The notes under the pieces are model-generated. The model did not search any database and was not told the DNA's origin. It was given only the letters and a program-made list of their open reading frames with translations. Shown piece after piece: positions 20,555 through 50,702 of a stretch of DNA of 64,000 bases. The stretch is taken from IMG/VR virus record IMGVR_UViG_3300042448_001253, positions 65,482 to 129,481 of that record, one strand, 5' to 3'. The position numbers and the translations under genes are program-made. The stretch comes from a virus. Numbering within the stretch: position 1 is the first letter of the stretch; the number at the start of each line of letters is the position of its first letter.

Positions 20555-20875
20555 TTTGGAACTCCCTTTCGCCCGAACCTTTCGGGCTTATGTAATAAGC
20601 CTACACTATCCGCAACTAAATACAAGCAAATAAACAAAAATAAATAAATAATTTTTTAGCAATAAACGGGAACAAACTTGCCCCCCCCCTAATCTCAACA
20701 AACAACCGCACAAGCCCAAGCCCAGAACCTACACACAAGCCCGCAGACAAACACACAAGCCCCAGAACCTAAACCCGTAAGCAGACACCCAAACACCCAA
20801 ACACCCCCAAACACCTAAACCCCCAACTTCTCATTAAGCCCGCAAGGGTTAGCGTATTCATTTTTTCACAACTTC

Positions 20876-20979
20876 CAAAAACAAAAACAAAAACAAAAAC
20901 AAAAACAAAAACAAAAACAAAAACAAAAACAAAAACAAAAACAAAAACAAAAACAAAAAACAAAAACAAAAAACAAAAC
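20876..20979. repeat. (CAAAAA)n microsatellite
   Basis: About 17 units directly after the reversed 16-mer at 20854. Confidence 0.9.
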
Positions 20980-21043
20980 TGCCCGCAAACAAAAAAAGTT
21001 CCCCCGCACTTATGCGAGAGAACTTTTTACTTTTACTTAGTTA

Positions 21044-21181
21044 TTACTTTTTGTATTTGCGAACCGCAGACACATAAGCAATTCCGCCAACTACAAAAGT
21101 CAGCAACAAACCGCCACCAAGAATAGCAACGCCAAGCAGAACAAGTTCCGCAATCTTTCCAAGCAATTCAAAAGCAAACAT
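21044..21181 (-). CDS. 45-aa single-TM protein (not in track)
   Basis: MFAFELLGKIAELVLLGVAILGGGLLLTFVVGGIAYVSAVRKYKK; GAAAGGG SD, promoter and terminator. Confidence 0.75.
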   Translation of the reverse strand: MFAFELLGKIAELVLLGVAILGGGLLLTFVVGGIAYVSAVRKYKK

Positions 21182-21226
21182 CTTTAACCCTTTCGTAAAG
21201 TAGCAATCTATTTGATTACTAATGTA

Positions 21227-21297
21227 ATCTTACCAAACTTAAGCCGTAAGTCAATGACCAACATACCCGCAAATAAATCCAGTGAAAAAATGAATAC
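21227..21297 (-). promoter_or_regulatory. Representative cassette promoter: 16-mer, 27 bp, TTGACT, 16 bp, TAAGAT
   Basis: 16-mer 21282-21297; -35 at 21249-21254; -10 at 21227-21232. Same 27-bp gap to TTGACT at 22486, 33161, 40953 and 44267. Confidence 0.8.
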
Positions 21298-21375
21298 CCG
21301 CACAAACACCCGCACAAACACCCGCACAAACACCCGCACAAAATTACGCCCGCACACTTCCCCGCACACTTCCCC
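21296..21375. repeat. 12-bp tandem repeats CCCGCACAAACA / CCCGCACACTTC
   Basis: Directly readable tandem units. Confidence 0.85.
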
Positions 21376-21555
21376 GCAAGCCCCTACACACATAAACGCC
21401 CCCTAATGCCCCTACAAGCCCCTAACCCCCTAAACCCTACATCTACCCGCCCGCACAACTGAACGCCCCTACACGCCCCGCACAAGCCCCCGCACACTTC
21501 CCCCGATTAAAAAGATAACCCCCGCTTGTTAGGCGGGGGAAATCTTTAATGAACC

Positions 21556-21828
21556 CTAAACAATTACGATTGCGGGAACATCATCAGCAAAAGAACTTCG
21601 CTTAATCCAGTCGCCAATTTGAGCAACTTCATCACTAGCATCTTCCGCAACAACTTCACGCCATCTAGCCCCGCAACAATCGCAGTCGCCACTGCCATCA
21701 AAGTAAAGCCCATTACCAAGAGCAATCTTGTTAGCAGTTTCAGCATCATCAGCAGTTACTACAAACTGAATTGCTGGAGCGGTGTAATACCCGCCAGAAT
21801 TATTCTGGATAAAAATAAAGTAAGCCAT
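21556..21828 (-). CDS. Conserved phage hypothetical (QNNSGG...CDCCGARW)
   Basis: SD, promoter, terminator; Cys cluster. Confidence 0.8.
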   Translation of the reverse strand: MAYFIFIQNNSGGYYTAPAIQFVVTADDAETANKIALGNGLYFDGSGDCDCCGARWREVVAEDASDEVAQIGDWIKRSSFADDVPAIVIV

Positions 21829-22049
21829 AATTTCCCCTTTCGGAAATTCGTAATCAGCACTTCTGATTACATAAGAAGTTTACCATTAAATTTTCCAATT
21901 CCGCAAATCGCAATACCCGCATACAAATCTGGTGAAAAAATGAATACACCCGCAAGCCCGCCCGCAAAATAAAATCCTGCCCGCCGTAAGCCCGCCCGCT
22001 TAAATGCTTGACGGGGTTAGGTTGCCCTAACCCCGCAAGCCCGCCCGAC

Positions 22050-22367
22050 TTAGCGGAAGATGTTGATAATCACCTTGTAGGCGGTTGCTCTCTTTGTTGC
22101 TTCGTATGCTTCTGGAAACAACTCCGCAAGTTTCTTGCTGTCGTTTGTGGTGCGTGTTCTCTCGTCAAGGCGAGCAACTTCTAGATTGCGGTGAGTTAGC
22201 AAAGTTGCTTCCCCGAACGCTTCCAAGATGTCTGCCTTAAGTTGTGTTTCTTCTTTCTCTAGGTTCGCAATCAACGCCTTAACTTCTGCGTAACGGGAAA
22301 CCTTGTTAACTGTTTCAGTTGTAGCCTTAGCAGATACTACATCTGCGGTTTTTAAAATGGTAGCCAT
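22050..22367 (-). CDS. Coiled-coil hypothetical, family shared with 36682 and 43815
   Basis: Start reassigned to MATILK after AAAGGGG SD; IANLEKEETQLKADIL...THRNLEVARL...KLAELFPEAYE. Confidence 0.75.
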   Translation of the reverse strand: MATILKTADVVSAKATTETVNKVSRYAEVKALIANLEKEETQLKADILEAFGEATLLTHRNLEVARLDERTRTTNDSKKLAELFPEAYEATKRATAYKVIINIFR

Positions 22368-22705
22368 TTGGCGACCCCTTTCGTTTATCAAGGTTTCGGC
22401 GGTTGCTTCTAACTTCCCTTGATGTAATCAAGTGTATCAAAATCTGGCGGTAAGTCAAATCAAGACACACCCGCCCGCAACGAGTGTGAAAAAATGAATA
22501 CACCCGCAAGCAACGCCCCCGCAACAACTCCAAGCCCCCGCATAAACCCTAAACACCTAAAAGCCCTTGTAAGCCCCTACAAGCCCCCGAAACTGCTCGC
22601 CCTAGTCCATACCCGTTTAGCAACAAAAGCCCGCCTATCCCCCTTACAAGCCCGCATAGAAGAAACGCCCTAACCTTTCGGCTAAGGCGTTCTCCTAGTT
22701 CTTGC

Positions 22706-23074
22706 TTAGTAATCGTAACTCTCTGGCGATAGTGCGAACGCTTGCTCGCTGATTAGTTCGCTTATCTTGTTTAAGTTCTCGGCTAGGGTGCTAATTGCTT
22801 GCTTGGCATTGCTAATTGCTTGCTCTAGTTCTGGAGATAGCCCCAAAACTTCGCTGGCGTTGTCGCTGTCCCCATAGTGAGAGATTGGCAAGTCATTTAC
22901 TAATTCCGCAACTGCTCTAATCTCGTTGTAAATAACATCTAGTGCGTTGTTGTTCTGGCGTTCGCCTGTGTAGCCGTATAGACTTTCGCCCGAAAATAGC
23001 AAGTTAATTCGTGAAGCATACTTCTCTAAAAGAGAAGCGTTAAAACTTGGTGATACTTGGATAATTTCGTTCAT
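22706..23074 (-). CDS. Hypothetical protein
   Basis: Start reassigned to MNEIIQ after AAAGGG SD. Confidence 0.7.
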   Translation of the reverse strand: MNEIIQVSPSFNASLLEKYASRINLLFSGESLYGYTGERQNNNALDVIYNEIRAVAELVNDLPISHYGDSDNASEVLGLSPELEQAISNAKQAISTLAENLNKISELISEQAFALSPESYDY

Positions 23075-23401
23075 AGTTGATAGCCCTTTATTAGTTGGTG
23101 AAACCACGCCCGCAAAAAAAGCAGGCGTGACAAAGCCCGAGACCACTTGGAGGTTTCTGTTTGACTTCATAAGTCAATACTACCACCCGCAAACTAAAAA
23201 GCAAGCATTTATCCAAAGATTTATTTATTAGTTTTTAGGTTGCCCTAAGTCAGCCCAACTTCGCATTAAGCTAGTCGTGTCTTGTATTCATTTTTTCACA
23301 ACCTATCCGCAAACAAAAAAAGCGGGTTGCCCACATAGCAAGCAATCCGCAAGCAAAAAACTCCCCCGCAAGTTGCGAGAGAGTTTGTTTGTTGTTGCGA
23401 A

Positions 23402-23677
23402 TTACTTAGGCAGTTTGTCCGTCAAGGTTATCAAGGCTAGGCGGTATGCTTCACGCTTCACATAGGCTTCGTGCTGACTTAGTGCTAAATAGTTAGCGTG
23501 TGTTTCGCTTCCGTCTGTTGCCCAAGTCTGTCTGTTGCTGGCTTCATCAATCCACTTGGCATACTTGTCCGCAACTCTGGCAATCGCCCTTGCTAAGTTA
23601 TAAGTTGTCTCAACTTTGTAAATCTTCTTAATGACAAGTTCCGCATACTGCTCTGCTGTTAGGTTCATTAGTTCCAC
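23402..23677 (-). CDS. Hypothetical protein
   Basis: Overlaps the stop of the upstream gene; terminator downstream. Confidence 0.7.
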   Translation of the reverse strand: MELMNLTAEQYAELVIKKIYKVETTYNLARAIARVADKYAKWIDEASNRQTWATDGSETHANYLALSQHEAYVKREAYRLALITLTDKLPK

Positions 23678-23844
23678 TCCCTTAGTGCCTTAGTTAGTTT
23701 GGCGTTGCGAGTTCTCGCACGCTTGTCCGCCTTGTTGGCGTGAGTTCCGCTGGCGTTGCTTCTCGCACGCTGGCGAAGCAACTCCGCAAGCACGCTGGCT
23801 TCAGCGTTGCGAACGGCTTGATTGTTTCTGTCTAGTTTTGACAT
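23668..23844 (-). CDS. Basic hypothetical protein (58 aa)
   Basis: MSKLDRN start after GAAAGGG; TAGACT -10. Confidence 0.7.
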   Translation of the reverse strand: MSKLDRNNQAVRNAEASVLAELLRQRARSNASGTHANKADKRARTRNAKLTKALREWN

Positions 23845-24017
23845 CTTGACCCTTTCTTGTCTTAGGACAAGTCTACCAAAATCTAGGGAAAAAGCAAATC
23901 TCGCCCCGTGTCGCCCGTAAGCCTGTGAAAAAATGAATACGCACCCCGAACTCGCAAGCACTCGGCAAGCAAAAAAATAACCCCCTGAAAAATCAGGGGG
24001 ATACTTTTTACTAAGGC

Positions 24018-24176
24018 TTAGTTTGAGTTTCCAACTACTTCCCAAGTGAACGGCTTGTCGCCCATAAGTTCCTTAGTTCTACGAATAATTTCTTCTGCCT
24101 TTTCCCAAGTGTGAACTTCATAAATCGGGTGGACATTAGAAACTTCATCGTGAATAATTAGTGAATAGATGTTCAT
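24018..24176 (-). CDS. 52-aa hypothetical (not in track)
   Basis: MNIYSLIIHDEVSNVHPIYEVHTWEKAEEII...; GAAAAGGA SD. Confidence 0.65.
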   Translation of the reverse strand: MNIYSLIIHDEVSNVHPIYEVHTWEKAEEIIRRTKELMGDKPFTWEVVGNSN

Positions 24177-24201
24177 TTGTTTTTCCTTTTCTTGTTTGTT
24201 T

Positions 24202-24411
24202 TTATTTAGGGTTTTTGATTATCCAGAGAGCAACGGCAAAGGTGTTCACAAGTTCGCCTGTGTTTAGTTCGTTGCCGAACTTCCCACCAGAAACTTCGTA
24301 AGCGAACTTCGGTTCGCACTTGACGCCAACGCCCCAAGATTGAGCCAATGCTAATGCTTCTAGGTTTAGGCGATTAGACTTCTTGCTAACGCCTGTTTTT
24401 CTTCTTGCCAT
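24202..24411 (-). CDS. Hypothetical protein
   Basis: MARRKTG start after GAAAGGGA. Confidence 0.7.
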   Translation of the reverse strand: MARRKTGVSKKSNRLNLEALALAQSWGVGVKCEPKFAYEVSGGKFGNELNTGELVNTFAVALWIIKNPK

Positions 24412-24584
24412 TTTTCGTCCCTTTCGTTTATAGAATAAGTATACCACCACGCACCGACACGCACAACCCAACACACCTAGCCGTGACCTCTTGTGAAAAA
24501 ATGAATACGCAACCCCAACACCACGCACCCGCAAGCAAAAGAAAATCCCCCCACAAAAGCAGGGGGACTTCCCGTAAGAATTAC

Positions 24585-24770
24585 TTATCTATTTCTACGC
24601 CTAATGAACACAGGCAGTTCCGCAATCGCAAGCACCAGAGCAACAGGTATCAGCAAGCCCGCAAGCCCTAGCCCGATTACAAAAGCCATTTCACTTCCGC
24701 CCACAAGCCCGTAATAGAACCCGCAACCAGCAGACCAGACACCTAGCAACGCAAGCACGCCCTTAATCAT
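24585..24770 (-). CDS. Small 2-TM membrane protein
   Basis: Hydrophobic helices; overlaps upstream stop. Confidence 0.7.
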   Translation of the reverse strand: MIKGVLALLGVWSAGCGFYYGLVGGSEMAFVIGLGLAGLLIPVALVLAIAELPVFIRRRNR

Positions 24771-24981: not shown

Positions 24982-25167
24982 TTTTAATCCCTTTCCTAAG
25001 GTTGTAATACAATCTTACACCCTAGACCCCAATTCACGCAATACCCCACCCGTAAGCGTGTTGCGGGTGAAAAAATGAATACTCCCCGTATAAAAATTAC
25101 CGCAAGCAATCTGCCCGCAAGCAAGAAACTAGGCGAGTGTTTCCACCCGCCTAGTCCGCTTACTTAC

Positions 25168-25383: not shown

Positions 25384-25503
25384 TTGTCGCCCTTTCCGTT
25401 TAACTTCATAACCAATTTGATTACATAGTAATCTTACCACCATTACCCGTAATCACCTAATCGCAACGGCAAAGCGATACCCCCTGTGAAAAAATGAATA
25501 CAC

Positions 25504-25568
<65 letters not shown>

Positions 25569-25604
25569 CCCCCCATTGCTGGGGGGAGAGTTTTAATTAA
25601 GGGT

Positions 25605-25952
25605 CTAGCCGAATACTATTTCCCCGAACATCGCAACCTGAACAATTACATCTGCGTCTGTTGCGTCGTAATCAACATCACTAGGGTCTGCGATTAGTTG
25701 CTGGCAAACTGCCTTGGTTGCTGAATTAACTTTTACTTCACCGCTAGCAAGTCTCTTGCTGGCTTCGTATAGGTCTTGGTAAGTAACTGTCTTGTTAACT
25801 ACGCCGGCGGTTTCATCTACGCAATCGTCTAGCAAGGTGATTGAGTAGGTTTGGTTTGCTTCGTCGTGTGTTGCTGTTTCTGCCCAGTAGTCAATAGACA
25901 TACCTGCGTCATCACAGATAAAGCCTAGGACTTCTTTTAGTTCTGCGTTCAT
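25605..25952 (-). CDS. Acidic conserved phage hypothetical (DADVIVQVAMFGEIVFG)
   Basis: SD, promoter, terminator. Confidence 0.8.
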   Translation of the reverse strand: MNAELKEVLGFICDDAGMSIDYWAETATHDEANQTYSITLLDDCVDETAGVVNKTVTYQDLYEASKRLASGEVKVNSATKAVCQQLIADPSDVDYDATDADVIVQVAMFGEIVFG

Positions 25953-26121
25953 TGTTGCTCCCTTATTTGTGTTTCGTAATCATTTGATTACATAAGTAAT
26001 CTTACTCTCTTTATGTCCGCAAGTCAAAACGACACGCCAGAGCCGTAAGGGCTGTGAAAAAATGAATACAGAATACCTAACCGCAAAACAACACCCTTTC
26101 GGGTGTCGCCTTGCTCGGTGG

Positions 26122-26382: not shown

Positions 26383-26569
26383 TGTGTCCCTTTCGGTTTG
26401 GTGGAGCATTTATTTATTTAGTTATGACTAAATTATAGTCGCTAATTTAAATAAGTCAAATCGTAGAGAGTATTGGCGTGGCGGGGTGAAAAAATGAATA
26501 CCCGCAACCTTTCACGCAAAAAAAAATAACCCCCCCACTTTCGCAGGGGAGTCATCTTTGTATTAGCGA

Positions 26570-26752: not shown

Positions 26753-26943
26753 CTCTGCCCTTTCCCACAAGAACCTTTCTTGCTTATAGCAAGTATACTA
26801 CTCACCACCGACATACCACAAATCAAACCACTACCCCGTGAGTAGCAGGTGAAAAAATGAATACAGGCGAAAACTCTGTGCGACCTTATAGACACAAATA
26901 AACCCCCTACTTCCGTAAGGGGCTTACCTGCTGTTGCTAACGC

Positions 26944-27225: not shown

Positions 27226-27397
27226 AATTCCCTTTACTAATCAGTAAGGAACTTTTCCTTACATAGCAAGGATACCACACAACCCCCGACAAACCAAACA
27301 CCCCCACGACCAAGCGTGCCTAGGTGAAAAAATGAATACACACAGCGAACGGCAAAAACAAACAGCCAACTTTTCAGCTGGCTGTCTGCTTGTCGTG

Positions 27398-27736: not shown

Positions 27737-27938
27737 CGGGGAACCCTTGCCCTCTCCTGTAACCCTCAGCCCCCTTGGCTTCCTGATTACAATAGTAATC
27801 TTACTCCTAACCACAGACAAACGCAAATCGTAGCCGAGCTCGGTATGTCGGGGTGAAAAAATGAATACACAATCCAGCCCCTCAACTTAAACACAAACGC
27901 CCCCTAACCTTTCGGCTAAGGGGTGTCGTGTTGCTAGA

Positions 27939-28238: not shown

Positions 28239-28420
28239 TGTTTCCCTTTCAGCCGAACTTTTCGGCTTACTAGTAAGCATACTCTACACCCCCGACATTT
28301 CACAACTCCCACGCCCAAAGCCGTATGCGAGGTGAAAAAATGAATACACTCGCCCGTAACTTTTGATTAGCGAAATCCCCCCTGACTTTTATCAAGGGGG
28401 ACTTTACTAACTGCTAGGCG

Positions 28421-28855: not shown

Positions 28856-29109
28856 TTGATACCCTTTCAGCCAGCCACCTTGGCTGGTCTAAGACCAGTA
28901 TAGCCCCTGACTAATACAAAGTCAAACACATACACAAACTTTATTTTCCGGAAAGCGACCCGTGTTAAGCTACGGCTCTTAGGTATTCATTTTTTCACCC
29001 AGCGACTCAACGGCACACTAGTTAAAAGTGAAACGCCCTGCTCGGTATGTTCACAAGCAAGGCGTTTCGTATTGACGGGGGAAAGGGGGGAATACCCCGC
29101 CAAATCTAT

Positions 29110-29244: not shown

Positions 29245-29476
29245 TTGTGTCCCTTTACTACTCTGTGGAACTGCTTTGCGGTAGGTGGAGAGCACTCTCC
29301 TCTGGCTACTCTTATCTAGTGCTAGACAGGCAGTATCAAGCGTTTTACTTGATACCTCTACCTTACCACATAACCACCGACAACCCAAACCAACCACGCA
29401 AATCCGTATTTCAGGTGAAAAAATGAATACGCACCAGCGAAACCGCAAATCCCCGCTGGAACGGGGAAGCGTGATT

Positions 29477-29725: not shown

Positions 29726-29904
29726 TTGGTATCCCCTTTCAAGAGATAGAATTAGTGCCAAGTCGAGCCTTGGCTACGCCAAGTCTAACACACTCCAAAT
29801 CTAAAAGCAACATACGCCACGAAGTCGTGTCCTAGGGCGAAAAAATGAATACACAAACCCGTAAAGCAAAACAACCAGCCTTTCGGCTGGCTGTCTGCTG
29901 GTTG

Positions 29905-30228: not shown

Positions 30229-30412
30229 CTAAACCACCCTCTCTGTAATCAGGCACCTTGCCGTTTTGATTACATAGTAATCCTACTACACAACTACGAC
30301 ATTTTCCAAATCGCCACACTTTGCCGTGTAGTCTTGTGAAAAAATGAATACATACATTTACGATACAAACTAACCCCGCAAGTCTAAACTCGCAGGGTCA
30401 GTTCAGGTCAGC

Positions 30413-30697: not shown

Positions 30698-30858
30698 TTG
30701 TATCTCCCTTTATCTTTTGGTAGCCCCTTTGACTACAAGTCAATCTTACCACTCAACCCCGACAAAACTCAAATCGCAGGGCGAAGCGGTGTGCCAGTGT
30801 GAAAAAATGAATACACTCTCTAGCAAGCAGGGGGGGGCTTTTTGTATCGTGGTGGTGG

Positions 30859-31299: not shown

Positions 31300-31439
31300 T
31301 TCTCTCCCTTTCACTTGATACTCAAGTTTAGCATACACCCCTGACAAAACTCAAAATAGCCACGCAGTTAGCGTGGAGCTGTGAAAAAATGAATACAGCC
31401 CCCGTGAAAAAAACTTAGGCATTTCTGCCTAAGCCTTTC

Positions 31440-31810: not shown

Positions 31811-31964
31811 TTTGTTTCCCTTTCACTTGATACCTCAAGTGTATCACTCCCCCCCGACAAATACAACAACCCCCGAAAAGTTGTGTCCAGATGTGAAAAA
31901 ATGAATACACATAACCACGACAAAGAAAAGCACCAACTCCTTACGAAGTTGGCACTTGCCTTAT

Positions 31965-32168: not shown

Positions 32169-32340
32169 CTCCTCCTTTTCTTGCTTACAGCAAGTTTACC
32201 ACACTTACCAATAAAAACGCAAAGCCACACAGGAACGGTGTTTACCTGTGAAAAAATGAATACAGCCCCAACCTGGTTAAACTTTCGGGCAAAAAATTAA
32301 CCTGGAAGCCGAAGCAACCAGGTTAACTTTTATTGTCGTG

Positions 32341-32636: not shown

Positions 32637-32742
32637 TTGTCCCTTTTCCAGTTGGATTTTCCAACTACTAGTAGTTTAGCATTAACTCCCGACAAACGCC
32701 AACATTTCATTAACTCCGTGTTTCAGTGTGAAAAAATGAATA

Positions 32743-32786
<44 letters not shown>

Positions 32787-33064: not shown

Positions 33065-33408
33065 TGTTTCCCTTTGCTAAGGTAGCCGTTTTTGACTACA
33101 TAGGTAGTCTACCAGTTTCTAGCGACAAGTCAAATTGAGGCGTGTCGGAAAAAGGCGAGTGTGAAAAAATGAATACAGCAGTCGTGCTGGTCAATCACAT
33201 CTGGCAGGGGTGGAAAACAGGGGGCATACTCTAAATCGGGGCTGTAAGGCTTGTAGGGGGCTTAGGGGTCTAAATAGACATCTATCCCATACCTAGACCT
33301 AAAACTCTCTCTACGGGGCTTACAGGGCTTAAATCTAGAATAGTAAAACTCCCCCTGCCGTGTGTGAGCAAGGGGAGTTTTTTGAGTGTGTCCGACACTC
33401 GGCGGGAT

Positions 33409-33615: not shown

Positions 33616-33787
33616 CTCTGCCCTTTCAGTTGATTACTTCTTTTTCACCAACAACATCAGTTTACCACAACTAGCCCTAAAACCAAATTAGCCCCGTGTT
33701 ATCGCGTCGCCCTGTGAAAAAATGAATACACGCAAACTCATCAAAAAATTCGCCTAACTTTTCATTAGGCGAACTTTTATGAAACTT

Positions 33788-34057: not shown

Positions 34058-34214
34058 TTAGGAACTCCCTTTTCTTGTTATGTCTTAACTCTACACCATA
34101 GCCCCGACATCTCGCAAAACATACACGACAACGGCGTTAGGGTGTGAAAAAATGAATACGCCCTGCCCTGCCAAGAAACCTAACCCTTTCGGGTTAGGCT
34201 CTCGGTGAGATTGA

Positions 34215-34487: not shown

Positions 34488-34671
34488 TTGGAAACCCCTT
34501 TCTGTAATCTAGGCGACTTGCCTTTCTTGATTACATAGTAATCTTACACCCTAGCCCCGACATTACCAAATTGAGCAAAGACTAGGCGTGTTGGTGTGAA
34601 AAAATGAATACACTCAACCCTGCCAAAAACTTTCCCCCTGCCAACTTCGGCAAGGGGAGAGTTCGGGGAGA

Positions 34672-35250: not shown

Positions 35251-35423
35251 AATTCCCTTTCAGTTAGTATCTCTAACTACTATCCACATTACACCATTGA
35301 GCAGACATTACGCAACATCTCGCAAACTCGGTGTCGTGTCTGTGAAAAAATGAATACATTCCGAAACAAATCTGTTACGGAAAATCCCCCTATTGCTAGG
35401 GGGACTTCTCGTATCAGTTCGGG

Positions 35424-35813: not shown

Positions 35814-35996
35814 TTCGTTTCCCTTTACTAGTTGATACGCCCCTTGGCATTTCCAAGTGGTAGTACCACTCTACCAGATAACTAGGACAAAGCAAGTTAG
35901 GGTCGTGTTTGTCGTGGCTTATGTGAAAAAATGAATACAGGTCGCCAGCTTAAAAATAATCCCCCCTAGTTTCAGGGGAGATTATTCAGCGTGAGA

Positions 35997-36524: not shown

Positions 36525-36681
36525 AGTTTCCCTTTCCATAATCTAAGTATCTCATTAATACAACCTAAACTCAAACTCATTTATTCCCAGCGTGTTTAAG
36601 GTGAAAAAATGAATACAACCCTGTTCCCCCTTAATCCAAAGTTCCCCCCCTGCTCTCGCAAGGGGGACTTCGGCAACCTGT

Positions 36682-37020: not shown

Positions 37021-37217
37021 GGTGTGTCCCTTTGTTGGTGGTGCTGTTTGGTGGTGCTATCTAATCACCTGAACTAGATACTAGTATCTTACCATTAAGT
37101 TTCCAAAAAAAGCAATACCACGCCAAAATTAAAAAGTCGTGTGAAAAAATGAATACAGATTAAAAGCTTAAAAATAATCCCCGTATTTCTACGGGGAATT
37201 ATCTTGGTGAAGATTAT

Positions 37218-37436: not shown

Positions 37437-37595
37437 TTTGTCCCTTTTCCCAGTTGGCACTTCCAACTGATAACCCCAGTTTAGCACACAATCGCCAAAT
37501 ACCTAATCAAGACCTCAAAACTAATTTCTTTGTGAAAAAATGAATACAACTTCGGCAGATAGTAAAATCCCCTGCTGGTTAGGCAGGGGGCTTAC

Positions 37596-37754: not shown

Positions 37755-37951
37755 AGGGCGATACTACCACCCGTCAGCGACATACGCAACTAGCGACCCG
37801 TCAGGTGAAAAAATGAATACACAGCAAGCCGTCAAGTAAAAACGGGTAGCAACCGAAAGGGGATAAGGTTGCTACCCGTCAGGGCGGAAAAGACACGCCC
37901 GTTGCGATTAGGAGAAAGGGGGTAATCCTAATCGCAAGCCGTTACACTCTG

Positions 37952-38296: not shown

Positions 38297-38523
38297 TAGC
38301 TTAACTCCTGCTCTTGTAGTTTCTCAAAGTGAGCCTGTCCGTCTGTTGCCGTAGAGATGTCAAAAATCTGCTCTTTGGTAACTCGCCAGTATGCGAAGAC
38401 CTGCTCGGATAGTTGTGCGAACTGCTTTGGTGAAATCTTAACAACTGCGTTCCCTGCGACAATTTGGAAATGGTCGCTTAGGAAGTTATCAATCGTTAAG
38501 TCCTGCTTTATCGTGTTTCCCAT
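38296..38523 (-). CDS. Hypothetical protein
   Basis: MGNTIKQ start after GAAAGGGA. Confidence 0.75.
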   Translation of the reverse strand: MGNTIKQDLTIDNFLSDHFQIVAGNAVVKISPKQFAQLSEQVFAYWRVTKEQIFDISTATDGQAHFEKLQEQELS

Positions 38524-38681
38524 TTGTTTCCCTTTCGTGTTGAGCCTTTCCCAACAACAAGTTAACCTTACCACACATCAGCGACAAACCAAACCAAGCC
38601 AGCCTGTAGTGTCCCTTGTGTGAAAAAATGAATACACTCTCGCTAGCAAATAAGCGAGAGCAGTTTCACTCTCGCCTATTG

Positions 38682-39413: not shown

Positions 39414-39576
39414 TTATTCCCTTTCGTGCCAAACCTTTTGGCAACATCTCTAACTTACCACTAATACAAAGTTAAGGCAAACTACGCCACGAAGATTTTT
39501 GTCGTGTGAAAAAATGAATACACTTAGTCGTGTTAAAAAAATAATCCCGCATTTCTGCGAGATTACTTTTTAGTTT

Positions 39577-39903: not shown

Positions 39904-40064
39904 AGTTCCCTTTTCGGCAATACTTCTTTTTCTTGCCTGTTGTAATACAAAGATACCAAAAAGCAAGAGTAAAAGCAAGTCCATACAGCAACAAATAATT
40001 TCAGGTGAAAAAATGAATACAAACCTGCCAAACCTAAAAGCCGAACAAAAGTTCGGCTCTGGTT

Positions 40065-40307
40065 TTAAAGCGTTCCACGCATTATGCGAAGTCTGGAAAT
40101 CTGCTGGTCAATCTCTACGAGTTCAGCCATAGTCAGTTCGTCCGTTGCGATTGCTCGGGTTATTCCCTTGTCCAAGTCCATAACTCCGTCAGCGACTTTC
40201 CACCCACTCACAACTCCGACAAGGCGTTCATAGCGATTGTAGAGTGCGATAGTTTGTAGTCCGTTGCTCTCGGTTAGTGCGTTCAGTTCTTTTAGTTCCG
40301 TTTCCAT
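40065..40307 (-). CDS. Hypothetical protein
   Basis: METELKEL start after GAGAGGA. Confidence 0.65.
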   Translation of the reverse strand: METELKELNALTESNGLQTIALYNRYERLVGVVSGWKVADGVMDLDKGITRAIATDELTMAELVEIDQQISRLRIMRGTL

Positions 40308-40471
40308 TTGTGTCCTCTCTAAGACGGTTGTTGTGTTCCCAGCATACCCGATAGGCAAGCCGAAGTCAATCCCCCAAGCAAGCCGTTAGGCTCGCCTAAG
40401 CGAGCCGTCAGACCTACCATAAGCAAGCCGATAGACGAGCCGTTAGGCTCGCCTACCTGCCTACCTTGCCG

Positions 40472-40849: not shown

Positions 40850-41042
40850 TTGTTCCCTTTCAGAACTACTTTTGTTTCGTTCTGTGTTGTAGTTCCAGAT
40901 TACACCAACGCTAATGAGAAGTCAAGTTCATACGCATAAAAGTTTTCGTGGTGTGAAAAAATGAATACAACAAAAGATTAAAAAAGAAACCACCTAACCG
41001 AAAGGGAATAAGGTTAGGTGGCTGGTCTTTATCTGGTGCTGG

Positions 41043-41861: not shown

Positions 41862-42011
41862 AACTCAAAGTTACCACAGCCAGCCCTGAAAACCAAATCC
41901 ATTTGGAAACTATTTTTAACAGGTGAAAAAATGAATACAAAGCCAGAAGTTAAAAAAGTGTGAGCCAGTTTAGAACACTTGGCTCAGGTGTTATCTCTCT
42001 GCGAGATTGGT

Positions 42012-42245
42012 CTAGCGTTTCCACTCGTTTAGAGCAACCAACAATTCCTCTGGCTTAATCTTAAGTGCTATACACACAGCGACCAAAGTATTTGCTGGCA
42101 TTTGTCTTTGCTTGTGAAAGTATCTGCTAAGGCTGGACTTCTGAAAGCCTGTTGCGATAGCGAACTGGTTTAGTGATTTGTAGCCTAGCATTTGGTAGCG
42201 TTCTACAAACCACTCCCAAGTGTCTATCTGTTTTGTTTTTGCCAT
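42012..42245 (-). CDS. XRE-family HTH protein
   Basis: SLNQFAIATGFQKSSLSRYF..QRQMP...ALKI.PEELL. Confidence 0.8.
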   Translation of the reverse strand: MAKTKQIDTWEWFVERYQMLGYKSLNQFAIATGFQKSSLSRYFHKQRQMPANTLVAVCIALKIKPEELLVALNEWKR

Positions 42246-42514: not shown

Positions 42515-42517
42515 ACC

Positions 42518-42835: not shown

Positions 42836-42874
42836 TTTGTCCTTTTCCGTTAGTGATTTGTTGCTACTTGGAGA

Positions 42875-43638: not shown

Positions 43639-43814
43639 AGGGAACAGCCTAGCATACGCCCCTGACATTTCACAACTCATTTCAGAACTTTTTATTACTA
43701 ATCCAAAGTCGTATTCGCCTTCGCTGTGAAAAAATGAATACAGCCTAGAACTTAAACACAAGAACGCCAGCAGAGAGAAAGGGATAATCTCTGCCAGCGT
43801 TCTCGCTGTGGTCG

Positions 43815-44204
43815 CTAGTTCAGCGTAAGAACCCTAGTTGTTGGCTTGGCGTCCTCTGCCTTAAACATAGCCAAGATTTCTGGCTGTGTCTTAGCAAGGA
43901 ACGCTACCAACTCTGCTGTGTTGTAGCGAGCAGGGTCTTTTGGTTGGACGAGTTGGATTTTAACTAAACGCTGTCCCTTTGCGTTAGTTCCAAACTTGGT
44001 CTGGTCGTTACCAAGTTCATCAAGGATAATCTCACGACTAGCCTTAACTACTTCGGCAACTTGCTTTTCCAAGTTGTGAGCATCTCGGAGTTCCCGAACT
44101 GCCTTTTGCCCCTTTGCCGAGAGTTTGACCTCTGGCTCTGTGGTTGGTGTCAGCACTACTCTTGCTGTTGAGGTGGTCTTTCCCACTGTCTTTGTGTTTG
44201 CCAT
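43815..44204 (-). CDS. Coiled-coil hypothetical (distant relative of 22050/36682), leaderless
   Basis: TTGACT-17-TAAGTT-6-ATG. Confidence 0.75.
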   Translation of the reverse strand: MANTKTVGKTTSTARVVLTPTTEPEVKLSAKGQKAVRELRDAHNLEKQVAEVVKASREIILDELGNDQTKFGTNAKGQRLVKIQLVQPKDPARYNTAELVAFLAKTQPEILAMFKAEDAKPTTRVLTLN

Positions 44205-44770
44205 ACCTAAAACTTACCATTAAGGAATACACAAGTCAAGTCCATTTAGAAACAATTTTTACTTAGGTGAAAAAATGAATACAAGTTTCAGAGGGTAAAG
44301 GAAAAGACAGAGTGCTACTTAGAAGTTTGTGTTTTTCGCAGCGTTGCTCTGGTGGCGTTAACTTCCACCTCTGTTACTTTCAGCCAGTTCTGTATTTCGC
44401 ATTTTGCTCTGTCTTTTGCTTTGGTCTGTTTCTCATTAAGCTAATTTGATTATGCCCTTATGGACAAGTGCTTCTATCTCCACAGACCTAGTTTAGCGAG
44501 TATTCACTCGGTTTCCTTGACATAAAGGGTTCGTCATTACACTAACCCCACGCACCAAAGTTGGTTCGGCGAGTGTCAAGCAAGTCTTTATTTAGTTGTC
44601 AAATCTACTCCGTTAGGCTACCAGAGTATAGCGAGCCTGTCAAATCCGTTTCCGTCTAGCCTGTCTGTCTGCTCTATCCGATAGCGAGCCGACACTATAA
44701 GCGAGCCTGTGTATCCGTCTTGCGAGCCAGAGTAATCCCTTAGAGCAAGCCGAGTAAGTCCGACTTCTCA

Positions 44771-45640: not shown

Positions 45641-45697
45641 TTGTGTTCTCCATTTCTTTTGTTGTTAGTTTCACCTTATAGGAGTTCTGATTATTTG

Positions 45698-46039
45698 TCA
45701 AGATAGGAACGCCTCGTATTTCGGCAGGCTTTCCAACTTTGGTAAGACAATGTGTAGAAACATTGGCAGGTGTGCGAACTCTGTCTCAAACTCTAGGCTA
45801 GTTGTCCAATGGTCATCAACAAAGAAGTCCCACGCTTGGATAGTTGTTTCATCTATCGCAACAAGAGGTATTGGATTGTCGTAGTTGCTAAGGGTTAGTT
45901 CATAGTCGCCCTCGCTATCAGTGCTAAGTTCCCAATCAAGTTGGTAGGCGATAACACGCAATACTTCGCTGTCAGTATCAAACCATAGGTTGATGTCGTA
46001 TTGGTTCGTGTAAGGAAATACCTCTGTGTCAATAATCAT
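45698..46039 (-). CDS. Acidic hypothetical, leaderless
   Basis: TTGACT-17-TATCGT-6-ATG (MIIDTE). Confidence 0.7.
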   Translation of the reverse strand: MIIDTEVFPYTNQYDINLWFDTDSEVLRVIAYQLDWELSTDSEGDYELTLSNYDNPIPLVAIDETTIQAWDFFVDDHWTTSLEFETEFAHLPMFLHIVLPKLESLPKYEAFLS

Positions 46040-46330
46040 ACTCTCACGATACACCAACACTAATGTAAAGTCAAACTCATCTGCGAGTGTGTTTGGTGAA
46101 AAAATGAATACGCTGTAAAAAGTAAAAATCTTCAGCATACAACTTCGCATTAGTTAGTGTAAAGTTCGCCCAGCCTTCGGCAGCTTAAAAATCCAAGTCC
46201 CAGTTAAAAGCGAAACCCCCCGATAGGAAATGGGAATAAACTATCGGGGAGTTTCTAATCCGTCAGCGAGAGCCTTGCTGTGAAAGGGGACAACAAAAAC
46301 AGCGTTGCTCAATCCCTGACGGACTTCTAT

Positions 46331-48190
46331 CTAAGCATTACGCAGACCAACCTGCTCTAATGCTTTCGCACACGCCGAACCAATCAGCGTGGCTATGTCC
46401 TTGCCTGTCGTGCCATTGACGAATACTGCCTCTGTGTTCTCTTTGACGATAACGCCAGCCCCACTATCAGCGTTCATCTGGTCAGGTGAAATCCACATCA
46501 CAGCCACGCCGTTACGCTGGCACTCTTTCATAACTTCTTTGGCTCTCTTGTATTCGGTTGGAGTGTAGTGTCCGTCAGAAACGATTACGAGCAATCTCGC
46601 ACCACGACCAGAAAGCAAATCAAGCGAGCCATTGAGAGCCGACCAGCCCTCGGCAAACTTCTCTGTTCCGTCTGGTGCTGTATAGACATTTACATCTGTC
46701 AATCTCTGCCCGACCTTGAGAGTTGGAAATACGCCAGAGCCATAATAGACCATAGCAGTTTTCGCCTGAACCCTGCGACCTGCCTCTGCCAGAACCCACG
46801 CTGTCGTAGCCATAGGGTTCATAGCAGAACCCATTGAGCCAGATACATCTACCATTACGCCAACAGTTAGAGTTGGCTCGTCTGTGTATTTGCGTGTCTT
46901 GTGTTCCCACGCCTCAACTGGAGTGAGTATGCCCTTGCTCTTGAGAGCCTGACCCTGAACCAAAGTTCTAGTGCGAAGTCTGCCAGCAGGGATTACGCCT
47001 GTTCTGGTAATGACATCTCTCTCACGATACTTTGCTCGTTCCAACATCTGCGATACACGAACGCTTGCTATGCGTTCCTCGCTGGTTGGTTGGCGAGTTT
47101 CTATCAGGCGAGAACTGCTACCTGTTTCACCACCACCAGACGAACGAGAGAATACCTTTTCTGCTGTGTCCTTGTCCTTGCGTTTCTCGTCAGCCTCTTT
47201 TGACTTCTCTGCGACCTGCTCTTTAGTTTCCTCTTGGTCTTGCTGTTCTGCCAAGTCGTCATTAGTAGCAAGTGAAGTGTCGTCAGCAGAGTTTTCTACT
47301 GCCTCAATCATTTCAGAGATAGCCTTACCAATCATCTCTTTCATCTCGTCAGACATCTCACTAGCAGTTCCACCCTCACCCTGCTCACCCTCACCCTGCT
47401 CTGGCTCTTGACCTTGCTCTACTGCTTTGTCCTTGACAAGTTGTGTCCAGAGTTTCGCAAGTTCTACGCCACGATTAAAGTCTGCTGGTCTTGTGTGAGA
47501 TAGAGTTTGGAACTCTGTCCAGATAGAACGAAGTTGGTCTAGTAGGTCGTAGCCAAGAACTTCTGAAACCTTGTCCTCAATCAAGACGACATCATCAGGT
47601 TCTAATACGCCACCTGTAACTCTGGCAAGTGCTAGACCTGCCAACTGGCTCGCAACTGCGACAGCAGACATCTCACCAATCTTTTCGTTGATGTCGCCAA
47701 GTGAAAGTTTGAGAGCAGACGAACGCAAGAACAATCTGTTCTTAGGCATAATGTTCGCACCCAACGCCTCAATACGACTTTCCTCTAGCAGATAGAAACT
47801 GTCGTATTCACGCTTGGTAAGTTCATTAGCCTTAAACAATTCCTCAAAGCGTGAGTGTTCCCAACCAGAGAACCTAGCGTGTAACGCCTCGTGGTAGATA
47901 ACGCCAACTGCCTCTGGAAACTCGTATTGGTTCTTGCGAAGTTTGAGGTCGCCAACCATTTCAGGAGTTGTTACTTCGCCAAATGCGATTGGTAGATTGA
48001 CCTCAATCTCTGCTGTGTCTGGAATAAAGCAAGCAAGAGCCTCACCCATACCTGCGTCCTTACCACCATAAACAGCGAGGTCGCTACGACCTGACCACTC
48101 GTTAGCAAGGTGTCCAATAGTCGCACAAGTTGATAACCACTCTTTAGGAGTTTCGCTGGTGCGTGTTGCTAGTCTTGATAAATGTCCCAT
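46331..48190 (-). CDS. vWA (MIDAS) protein with N-terminal HExxH domain (CobT-like partner of MoxR ATPase)
   Basis: HEALH; VDVSGSM; LLVIVSDG. Confidence 0.85.
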   Translation of the reverse strand: MGHLSRLATRTSETPKEWLSTCATIGHLANEWSGRSDLAVYGGKDAGMGEALACFIPDTAEIEVNLPIAFGEVTTPEMVGDLKLRKNQYEFPEAVGVIYHEALHARFSGWEHSRFEELFKANELTKREYDSFYLLEESRIEALGANIMPKNRLFLRSSALKLSLGDINEKIGEMSAVAVASQLAGLALARVTGGVLEPDDVVLIEDKVSEVLGYDLLDQLRSIWTEFQTLSHTRPADFNRGVELAKLWTQLVKDKAVEQGQEPEQGEGEQGEGGTASEMSDEMKEMIGKAISEMIEAVENSADDTSLATNDDLAEQQDQEETKEQVAEKSKEADEKRKDKDTAEKVFSRSSGGGETGSSSRLIETRQPTSEERIASVRVSQMLERAKYRERDVITRTGVIPAGRLRTRTLVQGQALKSKGILTPVEAWEHKTRKYTDEPTLTVGVMVDVSGSMGSAMNPMATTAWVLAEAGRRVQAKTAMVYYGSGVFPTLKVGQRLTDVNVYTAPDGTEKFAEGWSALNGSLDLLSGRGARLLVIVSDGHYTPTEYKRAKEVMKECQRNGVAVMWISPDQMNADSGAGVIVKENTEAVFVNGTTGKDIATLIGSACAKALEQVGLRNA

Positions 48191-48304
48191 TTATTTTCCT
48201 TTGTTTGATGTTTCGTTCTACTGCGAGTGTAGCAGTTTGGTTTGAGGCTGTCAAGTCCATTTCTCAACTTTCTTGACAGCCCCACTTTAGCAGGAACGGA
48301 ACTG

Positions 48305-49330
48305 CTAAATCTTTGCTGTCCTGACTTCCTCACCAAATACTCTGGTAAAGACATCAGCCACAACTCCCCTGTCGTTTTCAGGCGAGCAAGCGATTAGGTT
48401 GGAAACTGCCCAAGCAGTTCCGAACGCTGTTGATACATCTCGGAACGCAAGCAACTCTCGCATTTGAGGCGACCAAGAGATTTCCCCTGATTGCTGTTTC
48501 TTGCTTAGGTTCTGACTTGCTGTTACTGCTGGAACTGGAACTCCCAACTTCTTAGCAAGTCCCCAATCAGTAGTCATTTCTGCTTGGATTGAGAAACGAG
48601 ATAGTAGAGCCTCTGATAGACGAACGCCAATCGCATTAGGGTTGGTCGCACCAATCACATAGAAACCTGACTTGGCTTTTACAGTTCCTCGTTCTGGGTT
48701 CTGTGTGATTGTGATTTCATCTCGTCCGTCCATAAGACCATAAACAAGTGATAGAACCTTTGGGTCAATCAGACCAATCTCGTCAATCAACAAGACCTTA
48801 CCCTGTTCTACTGCTCTGGTCAGAGGTCCGTCAATCCACTCAAAGCCACCTGACGGAGTTTGGACATAGCCACCAACGAAGTCAGAAACTTCGGTGTCGC
48901 CAGTTCCAATAATGGTTTCTAGTTCCTCTGGGAACGCACCCTCAACGAGTGCTGTCTTTCCTGTTCCTGGACTTCCATAGAGCAAGATGAACTGACTTAG
49001 AGTTCGTGCTTTACGCAGAACCTCAATGTCTGTGTGTGTTCCCCACTTGCGAGCATAGTAGTCGTGTCCATTTGGACGAGCATACTTAACTTCGCCCTCA
49101 AGACTATCTACACTCACTTTGGTTTCCTTTTCTTTAGGTTCTGATTTGCCCTGCTTTGCTCGCAGACTTGCTCGTCCCTCTGCTGGCATTAATGATACTA
49201 GCCCTGCTGGAACTCCACTTGGGTCTAGGTTCTGAACTGCCACTCCAAAGATTAGGCTGGATAGGTCAGGGAACAGAGTGTCAATCTGCTCTGCTGGCAT
49301 TGGTGTTGATGTTGGTGTTATTGTAGTCAT
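48305..49330 (-). CDS. MoxR/CbbQ/CobS-type AAA+ ATPase
   Basis: YGSPGTGKT; LLIDEIG; ATNP; LSEALLSRF. Confidence 0.9.
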   Translation of the reverse strand: MTTITPTSTPMPAEQIDTLFPDLSSLIFGVAVQNLDPSGVPAGLVSLMPAEGRASLRAKQGKSEPKEKETKVSVDSLEGEVKYARPNGHDYYARKWGTHTDIEVLRKARTLSQFILLYGSPGTGKTALVEGAFPEELETIIGTGDTEVSDFVGGYVQTPSGGFEWIDGPLTRAVEQGKVLLIDEIGLIDPKVLSLVYGLMDGRDEITITQNPERGTVKAKSGFYVIGATNPNAIGVRLSEALLSRFSIQAEMTTDWGLAKKLGVPVPAVTASQNLSKKQQSGEISWSPQMRELLAFRDVSTAFGTAWAVSNLIACSPENDRGVVADVFTRVFGEEVRTAKI

Positions 49331-49366
49331 TTTAGATTTTCCGTTCTGATAGTTTGACTAGTTGGA

Positions 49367-49858
49367 TTATACAAGTTTTTCAGGCAGACCACAAGCAACT
49401 CTCGCTTTTTGTAATCTACGCATTAAAGCCTGTGGTGTTGCGTAACTTCCAATCTCGCTAAGGTCAAGTGCTGAAACCTCAACTACAACTGGTCGCTTAC
49501 GAACTACGAACTGGTATGTAATCTGCTTGACCAGAGAACTCTCAAAGCGAGAAGTCATACTAACTGCTAACTCTTGTGCTGTGGTCTTTAGGATTGGCAT
49601 AGCCATTGACACAGCGTTATCTACAAGTTCCTTGTTAGATACATTAGAGAAGTTGATACGCCATTGTTTGCGTGGCGAACTCTCTGATACTGTGCGTGAG
49701 TGTAGAGCCATACGAACAAAGTTTCCCTTGTGGTCATACGCCTCTGGTGTTAGCAGGATTTGAGTAACCCTGTTTAGGTCGCCAACTGTCGGAACTAACT
49801 CTAGGTAGAGTGCTTTCCCAACGATTGTCTTTTCGTCTAGTGGTGCTGTTGTTGTCAT
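49367..49858 (-). CDS. Hypothetical protein
   Basis: 163-aa ORF with GAAAACGA upstream. Confidence 0.7.
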   Translation of the reverse strand: MTTTAPLDEKTIVGKALYLELVPTVGDLNRVTQILLTPEAYDHKGNFVRMALHSRTVSESSPRKQWRINFSNVSNKELVDNAVSMAMPILKTTAQELAVSMTSRFESSLVKQITYQFVVRKRPVVVEVSALDLSEIGSYATPQALMRRLQKARVACGLPEKLV

Positions 49859-49930
49859 TTCGTTTTCCGTTCGTTCGTTTGTTTTGTTGTTACTTGATGA
49901 TTAAACCATTAATGATTTCTTTTGTCAAGT

Positions 49931-50521
49931 CTATTCGCCAAGTTTTTTTAGCGTGGCGTTTATGAAGTCGTAAGCCTCTAATCGTCTGTCCTCTACGAAC
50001 TTCTTAATAGTTGCTTGGTGGTTCTCTACCCAGTAGGCAATAGCGTTAGTTTCATCTAGGTAGGTAGGGTTTCCAAAGTCGTCAGCGTTAAGGCTAGGTG
50101 CGTAACCTATCTCTGTGTATTTGACTATGTTCTCTTTGTCGCCAATCTGTATGCCATTGGCAAATGCCACTAGCGTTATGCCAGCAAATCCCCACCTCTG
50201 CTTTTCGTGTAGGTTTTTCTTGTATCTGTAATAGGTAGCAGACACGCTACTATCCCACTCTTTCTTATACCTAGATAGTTCCTCTTTGGTGTAGCCCTCA
50301 AAGAACTTAGCGTGGTCTGGGTTGTCTAGGTATGGCGAGTTGCCATACAGCCAGTTAATACCAATCAGAACCTCAAGACCCTCAATAGTTCCGAGGGTAT
50401 GTTCTTCGTTTAGAACTGCGTAGTGCTGTGGTGTCCAGCGTGTAACCCTATGGGTGTAAGGGTGTCTGGTAAGCGAGTAGTCGCCAACCTCAAGTGTTGC
50501 TGTCGTTGTTGTCATTGTCAT
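49931..50521 (-). CDS. Hypothetical protein, leaderless
   Basis: TTGACA-18-TAAGTT-7-ATG. Confidence 0.75.
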   Translation of the reverse strand: MTMTTTTATLEVGDYSLTRHPYTHRVTRWTPQHYAVLNEEHTLGTIEGLEVLIGINWLYGNSPYLDNPDHAKFFEGYTKEELSRYKKEWDSSVSATYYRYKKNLHEKQRWGFAGITLVAFANGIQIGDKENIVKYTEIGYAPSLNADDFGNPTYLDETNAIAYWVENHQATIKKFVEDRRLEAYDFINATLKKLGE

Positions 50522-50702
50522 ACCAGAGAACTTAGCACAGGTTTAGAAATCTTGTCAAGCGTGTCGGGAAATCTTTTTGTATTCATTTTTTCACAAAGTT
50601 TGCGTGAGGTTGTTGCTTTTTGGAAACCTGTGTGCTATCTTTGTATTAAGGAGTTAGTGGAAAGTTGGACGGGTCAGAAGCCCCTTCGGACTTAACTTCG
50701 GA

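Follow-up and report, generated by a model that had tools for sequence, protein, structure and literature searches.

What does a 16-bp sequence do that recurs, nearly unchanged, all along an array of small phage genes? The question is raised by IMG/VR virus record IMGVR_UViG_3300042448_001253, of which positions 65,482 to 129,481 were analysed (the window, 64 kb of the genome, which is the coverage of all window-based statements below). On the minus strand, at 20854-50594, lies an early cassette array of ~60 small genes in ~40 units, each made up of a terminator, the 16-mer (here called the box), a promoter and one or more genes. We found that the box is a real control and shuffling element, and it is unpublished: a literal search for the 16-mer in 8.4 million papers had no hits, and topic searches of the literature returned no description of it.

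The box and its place in the cassettes

The plus-strand form of the box, GTGAAAAAATGAATAC, matched the window 43 times at up to two mismatches, 42 times exactly and once with GCG (at 29837), whereas shuffled sequence gave 0.08 matches with a maximum of 2. As matches to this form, 39 copies are on the plus strand and four (20854, 23284, 28983 and 50579) on the minus strand. Read in the direction of the transcribed, minus-strand genes the box is GTATTCATTTTTTCAC, and in this reading 39 of the 43 copies face the gene. Every copy lies within the array and between gene calls on the minus strand; the box at 46096-46111 does run into a long open reading frame (ORF), but solely into its unused 5' part, the real start of this ORF being the leaderless ATG at 46039. 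When the copies were aligned on the box, information content was 2.0 bits at all 16 positions and ~0 in the flanks, and the non-A/T positions (G1, C6 and C14-C16) proved invariant to the same degree as the T-tract. The 16-mer is asymmetric, with no dyad symmetry. By inspection it has no internal complementarity, and no integrase family was found in the window. This sets the box apart from integron attC sites, imperfect inverted repeats that fold into a hairpin and have an integrase nearby.

On the coding strand, a unit begins with a hairpin and T-rich tail, followed by the box, a spacer of ~26 nt, a TTGACT-like -35 element, ~17 nt and an extended -10 element (TGnTAnnnT). A short inverted repeat comes next, and then either a GAAAGGG Shine-Dalgarno sequence with its ATG or a leaderless ATG. 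The cassette of the box at 26054-26069 may serve as an example (all on the minus strand): the hairpin that terminates the upstream gene (GGCGACACCC-GAAA-GGGTGTTGTT, then a T-rich tail) is at 26087-26110, the -35 element TTGACT at 26022-26027, 26 nt past the box, and the -10 element TAAGAT at 25999-26004, 49 nt past it. The predicted start is near 25992, the inverted repeat GATTAC-TTAT-GTAATC (25986-26001) is centred on it, and the 115-amino-acid gene with its AAGGGAG Shine-Dalgarno sequence occupies 25605-25952. Across the 39 forward copies, a TAnnnT starts 48-50 nt past the box in 35 (in 23 of them at 49), against a background of 3.8%; a TTG starts 25-27 nt past it in 34, and TGnTAnnnT stands at 46 nt in 19. 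A terminator-like hairpin with T-rich tail was found no more than 80 nt upstream of the box in at least 28 of the 39, the distance from stem end to box being mostly 17-18 nt. The spacer between -61 and -36 is rather G/C-rich and unconserved in sequence, and no copy of the box overlaps the -35 or -10 elements. These results agree with the initial annotation on several points: its count of 43 copies (42 exact, one GCG) was reproduced by the mismatch-tolerant search against shuffles, its intergenic location confined to 20.8-50.6 kb is borne out by the gene calls, and the divergence that it claimed for the flanks corresponds to their information content of ~0. Its figure of 35 of 39 copies with a -10 box at 48-50 nt was identical on recount, and the position that it gave, between the preceding terminator and the next promoter, fits the hairpins and T-rich tails seen upstream.

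Some cassettes lack a Shine-Dalgarno sequence and have ATGs 6 nt (44204, 41861, 46039) or 7 nt (50521) past the predicted -10 element. Leaderless mRNAs are frequent in actinobacteria. Because these leaderless ATGs fix the predicted start sites, the box can be placed at ~-77 to -62, with the centre of its 13-nt core near -71, a placement that is supported as far as starts predicted from sequence allow.

The forward copies on the minus strand, as located by the 16-mer search, include those at 21282-21297, 21932-21947, 22486-22501, 23925-23940, 24493-24508, 25067-25082, 26486-26501, 26849-26864, 27324-27339, 27853-27868, 28332-28347, 29415-29430, 30336-30351, 30799-30814, 31381-31396, 31893-31908, 32248-32263, 33161-33176, 33714-33729, 34144-34159, 34596-34611, 35342-35357, 35923-35938, 37141-37156, 37532-37547, 38620-38635, 39506-39521, 40005-40020 and 40953-40968. 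The same search found the sole variant at 29837-29852, which ends in CGC, not CAC, on the coding strand, and the copy at 36601-36616, which has GATACT as its -10 element at 49 nt. Long coding-strand poly-T runs precede two further forward boxes from this search, 25486-25501 and 32728-32743 (37 nt in the latter), and appear on the plus strand as a 62-nt A-rich run at 25507-25568 and a 37-nt poly-A run at 32746-32782. Other simple repeats adjoining boxes are (CAAAAA)x17 at 20876-20978 and (ACCCGCACAAAC)x4 at 21296-21342. GC skew at 20-22 kb is -0.33. In the relative L136, too, a box is immediately preceded by a long run of T.

Four copies are reversed relative to the genes and read on the plus strand. 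That at 20854-20869, the last of the array, adjoins the (CAAAAA)17 repeat; the next minus-strand promoter lies ~100 nt downstream of the copy at 23284-23299; and the copy at 28983-28998 has a minus-strand promoter, TTGACT-17-TATACT, with its -10 box 80 nt downstream. The fourth, at 50579-50594, is at the array head, between two divergent promoters. Here a leftward promoter (TTGACA-18-TAAGTT, 50529-50558, minus strand) drives a leaderless gene of 196 amino acids from the ATG at 50521, and a rightward promoter-like site (TTGCTT-17-TATCTT, 50613-50641, plus strand) lies 41 nt from the box, which is in forward orientation to it. The rightward promoter would read antisense to a 97-amino-acid ORF and the endolysin gene. 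This arrangement, spanning 50529-50641, is kept in the relatives G002 and 3300027734_000248. A good promoter without a box (TTGACT-17-TATGCT, 40341-40369, minus strand) stands before the gene at 40065-40307; therefore not all array promoters are headed by a box. A generic promoter scan with a 9-of-12 rule misses these array promoters.

Perfect inverted repeats of 5-8 bp with loops of 3-5 nt and variable sequence were found at 26 of 35 promoters, against 3 in shuffles (maximum 7). They mostly begin 2-5 nt into the -10 box, reach to ~+8 and are centred on the predicted start, so that only the 3' arm would be transcribed. In the related phage genome DSL-LC01, covarying arms (GATTCT/AGAATC or AGATCT/AGATCT) surround the -10 box.

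A few other readings of the box sequence were dropped. A CRP-like half-site (TGTGA) and an NtcA-like GTA-N8-TAC both fail at the second half-site, which does not fit. The common flank after reversed copies (GCTTAATG.GAAGTTGGG), considered as a possible RNA, is present at two neighbouring copies only.

Versions of the box and helical spacing in relatives

A related terminase is present in 436 IMG/VR contigs. Close relatives at 80-88% DNA identity (G002, L076 and L014) carry the identical 16-mer. The contig G001 (74 kb, 44% complete, ~70% identity) carries [G/C]TATTCATTTTTTC 23 times, any letter being allowed at the last two positions; position 1 is C in each of eight successive copies (51.2-55.4 kb). 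Elsewhere the box reads GTATTCGTTTTTTC (lineages G003, L128 and L136), GTATTTATTTTTTCTG (G004 and L143), GTATTTATTTTTTGTC (L201), GTATTCATTTTTTATC (L155), GTATCCACTTTTTGAT (L177 and L179) or TTTTTCATTTTTTC (L137 and L157), so that versions start with GTATTCA..., GTATTCG..., GTATTTA... or GTATCCAC.... Lineage versions differ by one to three letters, have a T5-6 tract as the sole feature common to all, and are each uniform inside their genome. The family pattern of the box, GTATYYRYTTTTT, allows 32 sequences, of which exactly one is used per genome, and in two near-complete genomes the copies keep to the early array: G003 (125.8 kb, 93% complete) has 41 family-pattern matches, all of one sequence and all in 49.9-78.6 kb, and G004 (153.7 kb, complete, with terminal repeats) has 15, again of one sequence and all in 131.4-145.1 kb. 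The near-zero degeneracy claimed in the initial annotation thus holds within the genome, but relatives use other, equally uniform versions. In G001, two tandem boxes 21 bp (two helical turns) apart stand at 38386-38422, before the first cassette of the array. The window itself has a lone copy of the G003-type version (GTATTCGTTTTTTGTT) at 58358-58373 on the minus strand, antisense within a PA14-domain gene; no promoter follows it, and we dropped it as a functional box, the match being probably due to chance.

We found that the distance between box and promoter is quantised in these relatives. Promoters were called with a simple consensus score at a threshold of 8.5, and the clusters are also visible by eye in printed sequences. 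For non-redundant boxes, gaps to the best sigma-70-type promoter fall into clusters at 38-41, 47-52, 59-62, 68-72, 81-83 and 91, with few between. Among cases outside the main peak the strongest period was 10.5 bp (N=38, R=0.55, p about 1e-5), and the lineages other than that of the window, taken together, gave R=0.55 at 10.5 bp (N=79, p=3e-11), with a best period of 10.5-11 bp. The phase (gap mod 10.5) was 7.2-9.4 in all eight lineages tested, and phasing was significant individually in G001, G003 and G004. A window example is the forward box at 37805-37820 (minus strand, 16-mer search), where the -10 element comes at 38 nt, one helical turn nearer. Changes have saturated the spacer sequence, whereas the spacer length keeps to whole turns; with length held and sequence unconserved, the length, and with it the rotational register between box and promoter, is under selection. 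The initial annotation had named random spacing in related genomes as an outcome that would refute it, and had proposed the box as a cis element at ~-70 of early-type promoters. Spacing is instead quantised at ~10.5 bp across eight lineages, and this dependence on helical face strengthens the link to the promoter.

Counted from predicted starts, core centres lie near -60, -71, -82 and -92. Class I CRP sites are at -61.5, -71.5, -82.5 and -92.5; Fis site I of rrnB P1 is at -71, and the sites of phi29 p4, which activates or represses an early phage promoter via the C-terminal domain of the polymerase alpha subunit (alpha-CTD), are at -71/-82. Class I activators, too, contact the alpha-CTD from such positions. 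On predicted start sites, then, the box holds the same-face position of a class I activator-dependent promoter: like the class I and p4 sites it is centred near -71, with alternatives one or two turns off, on the same face as polymerase. Class I sites, however, are dyad-symmetric, degenerate and few per genome, whereas the box is asymmetric, uniform and present in ~40 copies.

In the window 11 of 39 spacers contain a weaker second box, ACACG, and in G001 13 of 22 do; it lies mostly 5-7 nt past the main box. In L155 it is fixed at 14-15 nt past the box, and it recurs in lineages without the main box. Three such lineages (L149, L146 and L176) have another repeated element, CGCGCTCGCGG, upstream of promoters, often with ATTTTGATCGA and ACACG, in at most 12 copies within 6 kb. 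DSL-LC01 (L107, OQ999401) has at 22.6-43.3 kb ~35 copies of a module, GATTCTAAAGATGTTATAATAGAATC, then ACGACGAAAGGACAA Shine-Dalgarno sequences, in an array of small genes between endolysin and terminase that is syntenic with the window array. It resembles the window in its small-gene array with conserved promoter modules. Unlike in the window, what is conserved is the promoter (GATTCTAAAGATGTTATAAT, an extended -10 without a -35), and there is no -70 box. The DSL-LC01 genome paper makes no mention of promoters or repeats (PMC10611076). No such repeat was found in Microbacterium phage Pumpernickel. The self-contained cassette array is thus the family trait and the box one lineage-specific solution.

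Cassettes are moved, gained and lost at the box

Comparison with close relatives revealed that cassettes were moved, gained and lost at the box. Array-internal alignment ends fell within 7 bp of a box in 11 of 29 cases for G002 and 6 of 18 for L076, where ~4% would be expected from these zones' share of the array. One unit, at 43813-44283 (box, promoter and leaderless gene), is upstream of the group at 43.7-42.0 kb in the window and downstream of that group in G002, L014, L076 and 3300027734_000248, with both junctions in the box. The boxes concerned, all forward on the minus strand, are that of the displaced cassette itself (44267-44282; leaderless ATG 44204) and the crossover points at 41923-41938 (leaderless ATG 41861) and 43726-43741, all from the 16-mer search. 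Of 25 pairs of boxes with orthologous downstream flanks (at least 75% identity), 8 show no relation between their upstream flanks. Across 38 such pairs, the boxes are identical save for one position in a single copy, whereas orthologous flanks are 75-95% identical.

The box is the sole homology between otherwise unrelated cassettes, and exchanges inside it would therefore convert only the box. We infer that crossing-over confined to the box homogenises the copies of a genome while lineages drift, and the block of C variants in G001 fits such homogenisation. Because versions are lineage-specific and breakpoints fall in the box, much of its invariance may be explained in this way. The initial annotation had offered strict recognition by a recombinase or nuclease, or pairing with a guide RNA, as alternatives to a protein operator. 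The first of these holds in part, in the form of a role in recombination, given the breakpoints in the box, but nothing indicates a dedicated enzyme, and nothing in the analysis supports guide-RNA pairing.

The closest described system, by analogy and not by descent, is that of the promoter-early stem-loop (PeSL) cassettes of T4-type phages. A PeSL comprises a terminator stem-loop, a sigma-70-type early promoter and a Shine-Dalgarno sequence between the small ORFan genes of a hyperplastic region (Arbiol 2010, PMC2839356; Comeau 2014, PMC4122927). PeSL versions vary by phage lineage and coincide with insertions, deletions, replacements and displaced ORFs (PMC2839356, PMC4122927). The window cassettes are alike in that a terminator stem-loop directly precedes the early promoter of the cassette (at least 28 of 39), that sigma-70-type -35 and -10 elements are followed by the Shine-Dalgarno sequence, or leaderless ATG, of a small gene, and that the repeats lie at the indels, replacements and displaced ORFs of close relatives. 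The two differ in that PeSLs have merely a loosely AT-rich stretch upstream of the -35 element, with no invariant phased box, whereas in the window the hexamers are degenerate and a separate 13-16-nt box ~26 nt upstream of the -35 element is invariant and helically phased. In addition, the window phage is unrelated to T4 and has a Gram-positive actinobacterial host and leaderless genes, while the PeSL phages have Gram-negative hosts.

Possible readers of the box and the phage that carries it

Sigma70_r2 was absent from G001, G003 and G004 in a search with a working control. Because these relatives lack sigma-70 region 2, the promoters would be read by host sigma-A holoenzyme. Two candidate readers of the box were considered and rejected. 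The Cro-type helix-turn-helix (HTH) protein at 42015-42245, the only HTH protein of the array, is present in G003 and was not found in the searched parts of G001 (the contig) and G004 (the array), and so does not qualify as a general reader. A Sigma70_r4/HTH_3 protein (16231-16809) lies outside the array and is kept in lineages without the box; its position, immediately before the terminase gene, suggests a possible role in packaging, as a small-terminase-like protein. The relatives also have two WhiB-like genes outside the array. Among 185,579 bacterial species genomes, the exact pattern box-N7-9-ACACG turned up 12 times, each time as a single hit and in unrelated taxa. This is about the number expected by chance, none of the hits was actinobacterial, and no genome had the pattern in multiple copies.

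Our working model, which we hold tentatively and at a little under an even chance, is that each early promoter is a composite module with the box as its upstream half, in a lytic-type actinophage without its own sigma factor, with a sequence-specific reader at a class-I-like position. A sequence-specific protein would bind the box, often together with the weaker ACACG(G) 5-16 nt downstream, and would touch host sigma-A RNA polymerase from that position. The contact would tie all early cassettes to a common control, for which recruitment and shut-off are both possible, and the reader could be phage-made, virion-carried or host-supplied. Crossing-over limited to the box would keep the copies uniform in each genome and let lineages diverge, and the near-zero degeneracy within genomes and the versions between them would both follow from it. 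A bolder form of this model, which we think somewhat unlikely, makes the box the address label of a putative specificity factor that may arrive with the virion, docks on host sigma-A polymerase from ~-71 and co-evolves with its ~40 sites. If true, every phage lineage would own a private code for its promoters; a cassette could then travel between phages with the same code and be expressed in these alone, and recombination at the label would not only reshuffle cassettes but also maintain the uniformity of the code.

Several observations weigh against a dedicated reader at a class-I-like position. Within the regions searched, no candidate reader is conserved in all box-bearing lineages, and the bacterial-genome scan does not speak for a host factor that uses identical sites, a weak negative given that the pattern was exact. 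The promoters look strong on their own, with a good -35 and an extended -10 element, and the need for an activator is not obvious. A newly made phage activator is less likely because early promoters must fire before there are any phage proteins. Some copies do not conform in spacing or direction: the forward box at 43726-43741 has its -10 element at 74 nt and that at 46096-46111 (minus strand, 16-mer search) at 44 nt, both off-phase, and four copies are reversed. Start sites are all predictions. Finally, the common T-tract means that a factor-independent bend or alpha-CTD contact could yield the same phasing.

This last possibility, in which a phased T6 tract and its flanks bend DNA or bind host alpha-CTD and so boost early promoters, amounts to a factor-independent upstream element; it is the main rival to the model, and we consider it unlikely. 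A/T-tracts occur upstream of strong early or rRNA promoters such as E. coli rrnB P1 and, as curved DNA, the early promoters of Bacillus phage SP82, where the rotational setting matters, and the box likewise carries a phased A/T-tract, the only feature in every lineage version. Helical phasing is what bends and alpha-CTD sites predict, the searches yielded no reader protein, the host enzyme alone must serve early promoters, and the recombination to which this explanation attributes exact-sequence uniformity, solely, is shown. Yet G1, C6 and C14-C16 are as invariant as the T-tract, the companion box ACACG contains G and C, and each genome settles on one of the 32 sequences of the family pattern. 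UP elements are tolerant of sequence variation and lie at -40 to -60; the box, at ~-77 to -62 and with invariant G/C positions, is upstream of the classical UP element and does not answer to its description. A phage-encoded RNA polymerase, with the box as its promoter in tandem with the host promoter of each cassette, is the explanation to which we give least credence. Promoters of single-subunit phage RNA polymerases are typically asymmetric 16-23-mers with next to no variation, and the box both has such invariance and asymmetry and points toward the gene. An independent promoter would, however, need no helical register with a sigma-A promoter, and the leaderless ATGs are at sigma-A start sites. 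The window proteins scanned include no polymerase family, and the T7-like polymerase family PF00940 had no match in G001, G003 and G004, a weak negative in that the control genomes were silent as well.

The remaining two explanations detach the box from the promoter that follows it. It is very improbable that a repressor-like protein halts terminator read-through at the box, or shuts the array off later, as a stoperator-type roadblock or insulator. The stoperators of L5 and Bxb1 are asymmetric 13-14-bp sites in 20-35 copies, intergenic and oriented with transcription, in actinophages; the box is similarly asymmetric, multi-copy and intergenic in an actinophage, with 39 of 43 copies in one orientation, and it stands just past terminators, mostly 17-18 nt from the stem. 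Stoperators, though, lie within the transcribed units of temperate phages, where they block elongation through the immunity repressor and one operator overlaps the early promoter, and are not phased to promoters, whereas the box sits behind terminators, in mostly untranscribed DNA, overlaps a promoter in no copy, and keeps a register with the next promoter that a roadblock does not need. Family scans of window proteins showed neither an integrase nor an immunity repressor family. That the box is a recombination site only, offering microhomology or a target for a phage nuclease or recombinase in cassette shuffling without any role in transcription, is improbable to much the same degree. It would account for the rearrangement, insertion and replacement breakpoints at the box and for the concerted evolution of copies within a genome, and the 57 scanned proteins (4 of them outside the array) include PHROG matches to HNH endonuclease and RecE-like exonuclease families, the members of which were not located. 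It leaves unexplained the fixed 49-nt spacing, the 10.5-bp quantisation and the orientation relative to the promoter, and the box has none of the dyad symmetry usual in site-specific recombinase cores.

Judged by its sequence, the window comes from a large, uncultured actinophage related to DSL-LC01 and Pumpernickel. The portal (12063-13853) has 72% identity to that of Actinomycetia phage DSL-LC01, a genome from a lake metagenome, and 65% to that of Pumpernickel; all 876 matching phage records are actinophages, and a DNA search against published phages matched DSL-LC01 alone, at 12%. Terminase (large subunit, 14540-15928) and portal are nearest to actinophages, which places the phage outside the T4-like myoviruses. 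Also recognised were an endolysin (51176-52183), a CobS-like ATPase (48305-49330) and a DNA methyltransferase (62404-63882); large ORFs at 2-8505 had no Pfam match. Array genes are mostly without a family match, those recognised including an SSB, a dual-specificity phosphatase, DUF2958, DUF6011 and the Cro-type HTH protein.

The array also differs from the rest of the window in that 4-bp palindromes are nearly lacking in it (20800-50600; 13 per kb versus 30-40 per kb). The transitions, near 20 and 50 kb, are sharp, and 6-bp palindromes are likewise depleted. In its 29.8 kb there is no ATAT, CATG, GATC, GCGC or GGCC, one each of GTAC, TCGA and TGCA, two each of ACGT and CGCG, three CCGG and 12 AGCT; only AATT, CTAG, TTAA and TATA persist. 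Outside the array most of these palindromes occur at ~1.5-4 per kb, although GATC, GCGC and CGCG are rare there too and GATC does not occur in the whole 64 kb window. The depletion resembles an avoidance of restriction sites in the DNA that is the first to be expressed, and perhaps the first to enter, and avoidance of palindromes may account for the asymmetry of the control box.

The box gives a precise handle on gene timing in large lytic actinophages without their own polymerase or sigma factor, and these phages infect abundant, uncultured freshwater actinobacteria. A box of 13-16 nt with versions one to three letters apart and spacing variants of whole turns is a natural mutational series for tests of the reader and of the helix face. 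The modules could, moreover, be put to use in actinobacteria as portable expression parts. The notion that promoter-terminator cassettes drive gene shuffling is here extended from T4-type phages to an unrelated phage group, and the results suggest that a regulatory site may be held uniform by recombination that the site itself mediates.

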